DNA from: Planctomycetota bacterium
GTDB taxonomy: Bacteria; Planctomycetota; Brocadiia; SM23-32; JAKLEA01
Direction of reading: 5' to 3'
Assembly: GCA_022711755.1 (NCBI GenBank)
Contig: JAKLEA010000001.1
Location: forward strand, 336,743-400,742
Length of the DNA: 64,000 bases
The notes beneath the pieces are model-generated. The model did not search any database and had not been told where the DNA came from. It saw only the letters and a list, made by a program, of their open reading frames with translations. Every line of letters starts with the position of its first letter. The first letter of the stretch is position 1. The position numbers and the translations under genes are program-made. Positions 32,818 through 32,985 of the stretch are shown one piece after another.

Positions 32818-32985
32818 GACGCGTCTTGCTGCCGCCTTGCCGTTTGGCGAAGCTTGCTTCGCCATGAAGCTTTGCTTCGGCACAAAGCGTTGTCTCACCG
32901 GGCAGCCATGATGCGACCTTCGAAGAACTCTCGCAAGCAAGCTTGCGAAACAACAAGGCGCAAGCAAGCTTGCGCACTCCAAGGA
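32818..32985. repeat. Cluster of short palindromes and inverted repeats built on an AAGCTTGC core. Candidate operator array upstream of the 1372-aa gene.
   Basis: Four elements are present: TGGCGAAG-cttg-CTTCGCCA, GAAGC-ttt-GCTTC, and GCAAGCAAGCTTGCG twice. Confidence 0.5.

Follow-up and report, generated by a model that had tools for sequence, protein, structure and literature searches.

Palindromes upstream of a secreted-protein gene in a Brocadiia bacterium as probable modules of a RAYT-associated, REP-type repeat element

A dense cluster of palindromes is found between two genes on contig JAKLEA010000001.1 of a Brocadiia bacterium (Planctomycetota), within the 64-kb stretch (positions 336,743 to 400,742) that we analyzed as a whole and refer to here as the window. 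An earlier note on this DNA had proposed that the palindromes are several operator sites for one dimeric regulator, upstream of a gene encoding a giant secreted protein, or alternatively that they form an RNA structure. We conclude instead that they are very likely modules of a single 194-bp element (32791-32984) of the repetitive extragenic palindrome (REP) or REPIN type, similar in organization to the bacterial interspersed mosaic elements (BIMEs), and that this element belongs to a family associated with REP-associated tyrosine transposases (RAYTs). The features of REPs that we found in the family are a unit consisting of a GC-rich hairpin, the occurrence of units as inverted pairs and in alternating arrays (loci L050, L077, and L124), the flanking of RAYT genes by units, and the Y1/HUH signature of the proteins encoded by those genes.

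The element (32791-32984) comprises two inverted REP units whose heads point outward, with headless hairpins in between. It is closed by a perfect 12-bp inverted repeat, CCTTGGAGTGCG (32791-32802) and CGCACTCCAAGG (32973-32984), and contains a 24-nt inverted repeat, 79% complementary, between 32825-32848 and 32945-32968. The entire region folds as one closed domain on either strand (-94.3 kcal/mol, z = -4.9 for the + strand; z = -5.25 for the - strand). The canonical unit is on the - strand at 32950-32984 and has the form CCTTGGAGTGCG-CAAGC-TT-GCTTG-CGC-CTTGTTGT, that is, a head containing GGAGT, a hairpin of 7-8 bp with a CTTG loop, and a T-rich tail. Covariance model R1 matches it with a score of 49.2 bits (E = 2.6e-13), and as single-stranded DNA its hairpin has a folding energy of -7.8 kcal/mol. 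The left unit (32791-32843, + strand) is a variant form that keeps the head, CCTTGGAGTGCGG, intact and has an additional hairpin, CGTCTGC-TGT-GCAGACG (32804-32820), in place of the 5' arm of the terminal hairpin, with ...CTTGCTGCCGCCTTGCCG coming next; under R1 it is degenerate, scoring only 12.1 bits (32791-32819, + strand).

All four palindromes reported by the earlier note are present where it had placed them, and they are above chance. The first, TGGCGAAG-CTTG-CTTCGCCA (32845-32864, + strand), is a headless internal hairpin of the family type (-8.3 kcal/mol as DNA, z = -4.0) with a partial R1 match of 12.1 bits that lacks the head (32849-32860). The second, GAAGC-TTT-GCTTC (32866-32878, + strand), is a weak hairpin within an imperfect 18-nt tandem duplication (32854-32871 and 32872-32889, 78% identity) and is not significant alone (-3.4 kcal/mol as DNA, z = -1.9). 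The remaining two are copies of the 15-mer GCAAGCAAGCTTGCG at 32933-32947 and 32960-32974, although the repeat that they share is really 16 nt long, CGCAAGCAAGCTTGCG, with a start-to-start spacing of 27 nt. Of these, the second copy is the terminal hairpin of the canonical unit, while the first belongs to a headless duplicate of that hairpin, CGCAAG-CTTG-CTTGCG (32932-32947, - strand), which is a 100% direct repeat of 32959-32974 and which R1 matches only over model positions 11-26 and hence without a head (20.7 bits, E = 2e-4). The 10-bp palindrome GCAAGCTTGC occurs twice in the window, only in the two 15-mers, against an expectation of 0.08, and two or more copies were reached in none of 100 shuffles; AAGCTT occurs 4 times in ~120 bp at the element vs. 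28 times across the whole 64 kb. Two extra matches to AAGCTTGC, the core common to the palindromes, are ordinary coding sequence (11255 and 38050). Motif searches of the 64 kb found no other copy of the element, and R1 gave no match in the window beyond the four intervals above. Searches of Rfam found no relevant match for the window region (E <= 10) or for eight family loci (E <= 1). The four palindromes are hairpin modules of one element, not separate operators.

A second copy of the element, 130 nt in length, is present on contig k141_924754 (L196/L249) of assembly ERZ27257456, the same assembly that contains the window contig as k141_908646. A gene neighboring this sibling copy is named as deriving from a Candidatus Brocadiia bacterium metagenome-assembled genome (MAG), and the sibling copy adjoins unrelated genes. 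The odd 53-nt left arm is 96% identical in the sibling, indicating that the variant left unit represents a propagated subfamily and not random decay. The right unit stems of the two copies differ in a compensatory manner (CAAGC/GCTTG in the window, CAGGC/GCCTG in the sibling), and at the position of the internal hairpin the stem has been changed fully, from GGCGAAG/CTTCGCC in the window to CCCCGG/CCGGGG in the sibling, with the CTTG loop kept (CCCCGG-CTTG-CCGGGG). The window copy alone has ~64 nt of extra internal modules, and the sibling has neither the weak hairpin GAAGC-TTT-GCTTC nor the headless duplicate at 32932-32947.

Beyond these two copies the unit is widespread. A scan with the 16-mer, with one genome per species, returned at least 125 matches in at least 118 loci, and among the matches listed the family head adjoins the 16-mer in 47 of the 125 (42 of the 118 loci), the 16-mer then being followed by a window-type flank, CACTCCAAA or CAGTCCACA. 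Thirty further head-to-head elements of 28-260 bp, all on the plan TTTGGAGTGCG-hairpin ... hairpin-CGCACTCCAAA, are present in the family loci listed. A metagenome scan restricted to CCTT-prefixed units detected at least 187 units in at least 120 loci; the loci listed include 49 head-outward pairs (28-394 bp), and no contig from the source sample, 3300010429 (Ga0116241), is among 80 of these at least 120 matches to CCTT-prefixed units. The unit can be written as (Y)TTTGGAGT + GCG-NNN-GC-TT-GC-N'N'N'-CGC + TTTG, its parts being an unpaired head, TTGGAGT, a GC-rich hairpin of 7-8 bp with a CTTG loop, and a T-rich tail. Head positions G5, G6, A7, and T9 are invariant in 75 distinct units, and the loop reads CTTG from the head in 69 of them, so the unit is strand-asymmetric. 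Stem positions in the same 75 units are paired in 99.2% of cells (85.7% in shuffles) and show double-sided changes in 56 cells (17 in shuffles), values that none of 500 shuffles reached, and slid controls pair in at most 60%. The three variable stem positions covary, giving rise to stems as different as CAAGC/GCTTG, GCAGC/GCTGC, GTAGC/GCTAC, GAAGC/GCTTC, GCGGC/GCCGC, GGAGC/GCTCC, CGAGC/GCTCG, and AAAGC/GCTTT. Hairpin formation is clearly under selection. Units usually occur as head-outward inverted pairs, and the spacers between paired units contain from 0 to 4 extra headless hairpins with a common AGC-WW-GCT core.

The titles of the records containing family loci name Acidobacteriota (many), Myxococcota or "Deltaproteobacteria," Hydrogenedentota, Chlamydiae, Zixibacteria, Chloroflexota, Kiritimatiellia, Ignavibacteria, Caldithrix, Fimbriimonadaceae, and Ca. 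Euphemobacter, which together with the Brocadiia (Planctomycetota) of the window makes about a dozen phylum-level lineages, as assigned by their MAG labels. Contamination is argued against by lineage-specific variants: the head is GGACT in Hydrogenedentota, Terriglobia have a bulged stem, and the loop reads CCATGC in another Brocadiia MAG. A search with one stem variant found units on at least five different contigs in each of JACRCP01, DAIPKA01, and JAKQEQ01. By crude open reading frame (ORF) calls, 24 of the 30 elements with a gene call on each side are between co-directional genes, and many begin a few nucleotides after a stop codon and end 25-60 nt before the next start. At L050:6892-7090 (spacing ~41 nt), L077:236-1404, and L124:1886-2898 (spacing ~100 nt), 5 to 11 units follow one another in tandem with alternating orientation, in arrays resembling the BIME-2 clusters of E. 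coli. A contig from Kiritimatiellia (L101:24-1222) has two REP-bearing direct repeats ~1.16 kb apart in a layout like that of a toxin-antitoxin cassette, with an interior 187-aa ORF that is nucleotidyltransferase-like by eye and a 75-aa ORF. Integron attC sites, a candidate prompted by L101, were rejected: attC core sites have the form RYYYAAC...GTTRRRY, with which the ends of the elements are a misfit, and most copies are in housekeeping operons. Similarly, a full-length insertion sequence (IS) beside the Hydrogenedentota copies, where contigs break, was rejected because the shared repeat is only 145-171 bp and is the element itself.

Could the palindromes still be an array of sites through which a dimeric transcription factor controls the giant secreted-protein gene? 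They are dense, they have the common AAGCTTGC core just upstream of a gene, and the two 16-mers are identical, all of which would suit such an array. However, we consider this reading scarcely credible and largely refuted, as about a dozen phylum-level lineages have the same unit and architecture beside unrelated genes, units flank RAYT genes, and the second copy in the same assembly adjoins unrelated genes. The construction of the unit is also at odds with it: the stems covary and the loop is constant, the reverse of a sequence-specific duplex operator, and the orientation of the loop relative to the head is strand-specific in 69 of the 75 units, an asymmetry for which a symmetric duplex operator has no need. 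In the window itself the 16-mers are 27 bp apart (~2.6 helical turns), there is no sigma-70-like promoter in the region, and no regulator gene is adjacent. The earlier note had stated that a motif conserved nowhere else would count against its proposal; what we found was massive conservation elsewhere, and of a kind that indicates a repeat family, not a regulon. Its second suggestion, an RNA structure, was correct insofar as formation of the hairpin is selected, but the structure appears to serve a mobile REP family as its recognition element, presumably in the form of single-stranded DNA, and any effect in RNA would be secondary.

The association with RAYTs came to light when all ORFs in the fetched loci were compared by phmmer with E. 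coli RayT and one locus, L077, was matched. A gene of 181 aa in this locus, with NHYH as its HUH motif and YVHANPVKH as its tyrosine motif, has elements directly on both sides; four more elements are downstream, and a second, partial copy of the gene is upstream. The L077 protein has at least 1179 homologue clusters (E <= 1e-5) of ~180-185 aa from Hydrogenedentes, Chloroflexi, the FCB group, Sumerlaeia, and Brocadiia, some of which are named "REP-associated tyrosine transposase." As an independent test, three homologues were picked by protein identity only and their flanks scanned with R1, and all three proved to be embedded in unit arrays. The Hydrogenedentes homologue (L124) has 11 units upstream, 2 downstream, and a further pair ~2.5 kb downstream (41-52 bits), the Chloroflexi homologue (L126/L127) has at least 3 units upstream and 3-4 downstream, and the Brocadiia homologue (L122) has units on both sides. 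RAYT genes are thereby flanked directly by units in four lineages, and units flanking a RAYT gene constitute the REPtron arrangement that defines REP-RAYT systems (PMC2817692, PMC6006769).

Comparisons of the proteins point the same way. All five tested proteins pass the NCBIfam model NF047646, "REP-associated tyrosine transposase" (84-97 bits, cut-off 80); the Pfam Y1_Tnp score, 21.4 bits, is just under its cut-off of 23, and the best solved structure is that of TnpAREP (PDB 4ER8), a weak match (E = 0.016). The signature of RAYTs comprises an HUH motif, a conserved W, and a catalytic Y within Y-x-x-x-N-P. Here the motifs NHYH, VWF, and YVHxNPxKH show no or almost no variation and correspond in alignment to HMH, IWQ, and YIYINPVKH of E. 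coli RayT, and the RAYTs are 54-72% identical across phyla. One homologue, P0071, has a 37-aa C-terminal extension. Most of the RAYT homologues are on very short contigs, many of ~1 kb, which fits REP arrays breaking metagenome assemblies. In three phyla the REPtron loci adjoin restriction-modification or defense-type genes: those for a Type ISP N6_Mtase and an N6_N4_Mtase in Brocadiia (L122:240-5598), an N6_N4_Mtase and a ResIII helicase in Chloroflexi (L126/L127:379-6431), and an AAA_21/AAA_15 ATPase in Hydrogenedentes (L124:4073-5995).

[quoted passage not shown] Moreover, ~118 bp from the sibling copy and near the contig end is the gene for an IS4/IS701-type DDE transposase, P0129 (PF01609/PF13546; L196:7477-8916, equivalent to L249:10001-11401), of which there are thousands of close homologues, mostly on ~2-kb contigs. 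Despite this, a MITE is a very improbable explanation. Neither copy has a target-site duplication (flanks TTCTGA/AAAACC in the window and CCGTAA/AGACGC in the sibling), and the lengths and interiors of the elements are highly variable. Furthermore, the apparent terminal repeats are REP heads that are also found on single units and in alternating arrays, and in four lineages it is Y1/RAYT genes, not DDE genes, that the units flank.

If the element is of the REP/REPIN type, it would have arrived in its present position and been internally duplicated through a RAYT, which is an enzyme of the HUH/Y1 type. By analogy with TnpAREP of E. coli (PMC3479197, PMC6006769), the RAYT would recognize the folded hairpin and the head on single-stranded DNA and would cleave and rejoin it, and cleavage and rejoining would spread and reshuffle the units. 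The gain or loss of modules between the window copy and its sibling, and the rearrangement breakpoints that are inside units in two near-identical Chloroflexi assemblies, are only hints of mobility in the sequences. Several points weigh against a REP/REPIN identity. There is no RAYT gene in the 64-kb window, and we observed no transposition event, empty site, or excision product. Only two copies were seen in the source organism, and only one of them in the 64 kb, a low density for a REPIN population. In the 75 units the canonical guide, GT[AG]G at 0-2 nt from the hairpin foot, is absent and the conserved unpaired head GGAGT (GGACT in Hydrogenedentota) is in its place; the ATGTGGAGT/ATGTGGACT variants alone show GTGG, and they do so 3 nt from the foot. 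To these must be added the crudeness of the ORF calls behind the gene-context counts, and the fact that the role in mRNA which the element may have, as described below, is proposed purely by analogy.

In the window the element fills the gap between two genes on the + strand. The upstream gene encodes a small membrane protein, DUF5989 or SxtK-like (32575-32790; Pfam PF19451, E = 1.9e-15), and its stop codon abuts the element; the downstream gene encodes the giant protein, a secreted FG-GAP/beta-propeller/GH2 protein of 1348 aa (33015-37061; Pfam matches and gene calls). The earlier note had given the giant protein as 1372 aa and had placed the palindromes downstream of the SxtK-like gene, which is correct, and in the 5' region of the giant gene, which is probably not. 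The ORF of 1372 aa, mechanically derived from an unlikely TTG start at 32943, over-extends the gene into the repeat element. The most likely start is ATG 33015 (1348 aa), which is followed by a signal peptide and preceded by a ribosome binding site (RBS), GGAGGA (33003-33008), 19 nt past the end of the element, and with this start the palindromes are intergenic. Public gene calls for the protein disagree, one record giving 1348 aa and others 1356 aa. The locus is present on three public contigs, which do not differ across it (100% identity), and the giant protein has no close homologue, the next best match having 28-30% identity over under a third of the protein; as a consequence, a comparison of synteny is impossible.

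With only 30 nt from the end of the element to the ATG of the giant gene, and no sigma-70-like promoter detected on the + strand in or after the element by a promoter scan, the giant gene is probably transcribed through the element from the carbamoyltransferase-SxtJ-DUF5989 operon. The gene is best read as the distal gene of this operon, separated from the others by a stable stem-loop domain. In the operon mRNA the element would form this very stable domain, which may shield the message upstream of it against 3' exonucleases and may reduce downstream expression or uncouple it, with the RBS left free. REPs and BIMEs have been reported to stabilize upstream messages and to reduce or uncouple downstream expression (PMC6006769), and known functions of REPs have been described (PMC6006769, PMC3733652), so that an mRNA-level role of the element may be envisaged by analogy. 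Sequestration of the RBS, through pairing of CTCC in the head with the Shine-Dalgarno (SD) sequence, is not supported by the centroid fold, in which the RBS is unpaired.

It could be argued that the fold is a dedicated cis-regulatory RNA (riboswitch, attenuator, or thermometer) in the 5' untranslated region of the giant gene that senses a signal by alternating between local and long-range pairings. The fold is strong and significant, the local hairpins and long-range inverted repeats exclude one another, GGAG and CTCC are present in the heads (SD-like and anti-SD-like, respectively), and the distance from the end of the element to a start codon is 25-60 nt in several family members. Nevertheless, we regard such an RNA as very unlikely. 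There is no corresponding Rfam family, the genes downstream of family members are unrelated, and an inverted repeat folds equally on both strands. In the centroid structure the RBS is unpaired, and the spacer varies freely, with from 0 to 4 hairpins and totals of 28-394 bp. In addition, the association with RAYTs explains the conservation without a ligand.

Transcription termination or insulation is a rival as regards function alone, as it is compatible with a REP origin. Each unit would be a weak intrinsic terminator and a head-outward pair a mobile bidirectional one. In most units the stem is followed by a T-rich tail (31 of the 75 have TTTG, TTTT, or TTTC), a scan for terminators picks out the - strand unit at 32975-32958, whose tail is CTTGTTGTTT, and REPs have been reported to cause termination (PMC6006769). 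Conversely, the T-tracts are short (3-4 nt), a + strand transcript meets the degenerate unit first and has no canonical hairpin plus T-tract in its path, and a full stop would leave the giant gene promoterless with only 30 nt remaining. Termination as the selected function therefore seems unlikely to us, although less so than the alternatives above.

Among known systems, the family is most readily compared with the REP, BIME, and REPIN sequences and RAYTs (TnpAREP) of E. coli, Pseudomonas, and Stenotrophomonas (PMC2817692, PMC3116915, PMC3479197, PMC6006769). REP units are GC-rich imperfect palindromes of ~20-40 nt that form a stem-loop, with a basal stem of at least 7 bp and a loop of 2-5 nt; the unit here agrees with this in its stem of 7-8 bp and its 4-nt loop. 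In common with these systems, the family has a short hairpin rich in GC, preceded by a conserved 5' head that is unpaired and followed by a short tail that is also conserved, inverted pairs able to fold into a larger hairpin, and alternating arrays like those of BIMEs. Its members are likewise intergenic, often between co-directional genes, and in several MAGs occur in multiple copies, and a Y1/HUH gene that passes NF047646 and matches 4ER8 is flanked by units as in a REPtron. It differs in its head, which is (T/G)TGGAGT or GGACT, whereas canonical REPs carry the tag GT[AG]G 0-2 nt from the foot of the hairpin (PMC6006769). It also differs in that its pairs are head-outward (tail-to-tail), in that its spacers often hold headless hairpins with an AGC-TT-GCT core, and in that a ~35-nt consensus is common to about a dozen phylum-level lineages, whereas in published descriptions REPs are species-specific (PMC6006769) and REPIN-RAYT systems are for the most part inherited vertically (10.1101/2022.05.22.493013).

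The RAYTs of this family (~180-185 aa; NHYH, WFQ, and YVHxNP) resemble, by motifs matched by eye, RAYT subclass 2.1 (TIRYT/TIRtron), whose motifs are NH[YF]H, FQ, and Y[IV]HLNP. Some subclass 2.1 genes have flanking inverted repeats, which make up moderate repeat families, in Acidobacteria among others (PMC3733652; PMC6006769). However, subclass 2.1 proteins average 238 aa and have helix-turn-helix extensions, they were reported without REP-like hairpins nearby, and the TIR motif reported is GGGGWSAS (PMC3733652; PMC6006769), whereas the RAYTs here are without this extension and are flanked by clear REP-type hairpins. Precedents for REP-like hairpins with tags other than GTAG are the CGTC-tagged REPs and the class 3 "CnGA-foot" repeats (PMC3733652; PMC6006769). 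The CGTC repeats have no associated transposase (PMC3733652), and class 3 repeats are found in Planctomycetes and Acidobacteria in hundreds of copies (PMC3733652; PMC6006769). Class 3 enzymes, however, have a Y----Q motif (YV[VI]xEQ) and NHVH (PMC6006769) where those here have YVHxNP and NHYH, and the tags differ.

The ends of IS200/IS605 elements, and their PATE/MITE derivatives, are similar in having a Y1 HUH enzyme and hairpins with a 5' guide. In IS200/IS605 the Y1 HUH transposase recognizes subterminal hairpins together with a 5' guide tetranucleotide on single-stranded DNA. Here there is no IS organization, and the hairpins at the two ends are inverted, not direct. The NCBIfam IS200 model gives only 18-19 bits (cut-off 55) on these RAYTs, and the RAYT gene, again unlike IS200/IS605, is apparently single-copy in the REPtron style amid unit arrays.

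The REP/REPIN kind of repeat is well known, but we found no description of this sequence family in the literature or Rfam. Full-text literature searches with the head and unit sequences retrieved only unrelated primers, a weak negative as REP sequences are often given in figures only, and a keyword search of the literature for RAYT together with these phyla gave nothing relevant. We propose tentatively, and without regarding it as established, that the window element is a copy of an undescribed pan-phylum REP-RAYT system with a non-GTAG head (TGGAGT/TGGACT) and a nearly invariant unit of ~35 nt. The lineages that such a system would span are Acidobacteriota, Myxococcota, Hydrogenedentota, Planctomycetota, Chlamydiota, Chloroflexota, Zixibacteria, Ignavibacteria, Calditrichota, Kiritimatiellia, Armatimonadota, and others. 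If this is true, then the REPIN-RAYT system either passes horizontally from phylum to phylum or has a sequence that is constrained unusually strongly, and both options contradict the picture of REPs as species-specific and vertically inherited. One ~35-nt consensus across many phyla is the most unusual aspect of the family and the part worth following up. Furthermore, the RAYTs here may belong to a clade, that with subclass-2.1-like motifs, which was previously reported without REPs. As a REPIN/RAYT case outside Proteobacteria, with head, stem, and loop variants that are lineage-specific and have matching RAYTs, the family makes it directly testable how the specificities of REPs and RAYTs co-evolve, whether REPINs and RAYTs move horizontally, and what part the head has in cleavage. 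A false lead is also removed, in that the palindromes are no marker of a giant-secreted-protein regulon; they are a repeat to be masked or labeled in any annotation of this MAG. The unit also breaks metagenome assemblies (many RAYT contigs are ~1 kb), so that a model such as R1 is of practical use.

The wider surroundings of the element contain further genes. Upstream is a co-directional run of genes (~26300-32790) for a GT2 glycosyltransferase, an acyl-carrier protein (PP-binding), two alpha/beta hydrolases, and then a 946-aa carbamoyltransferase-methyltransferase fusion, an SxtJ-like protein, and DUF5989, the last of the run. Together, upstream of the FG-GAP/GH2 protein, these look like a cluster for modification of a small molecule or glycan. 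Further downstream, from ~42440 of the window onward (L001:19870-20216), a gene for a 23S_rRNA_IVP four-helix-bundle protein (PF05635) follows that for a GH31 glycosidase.

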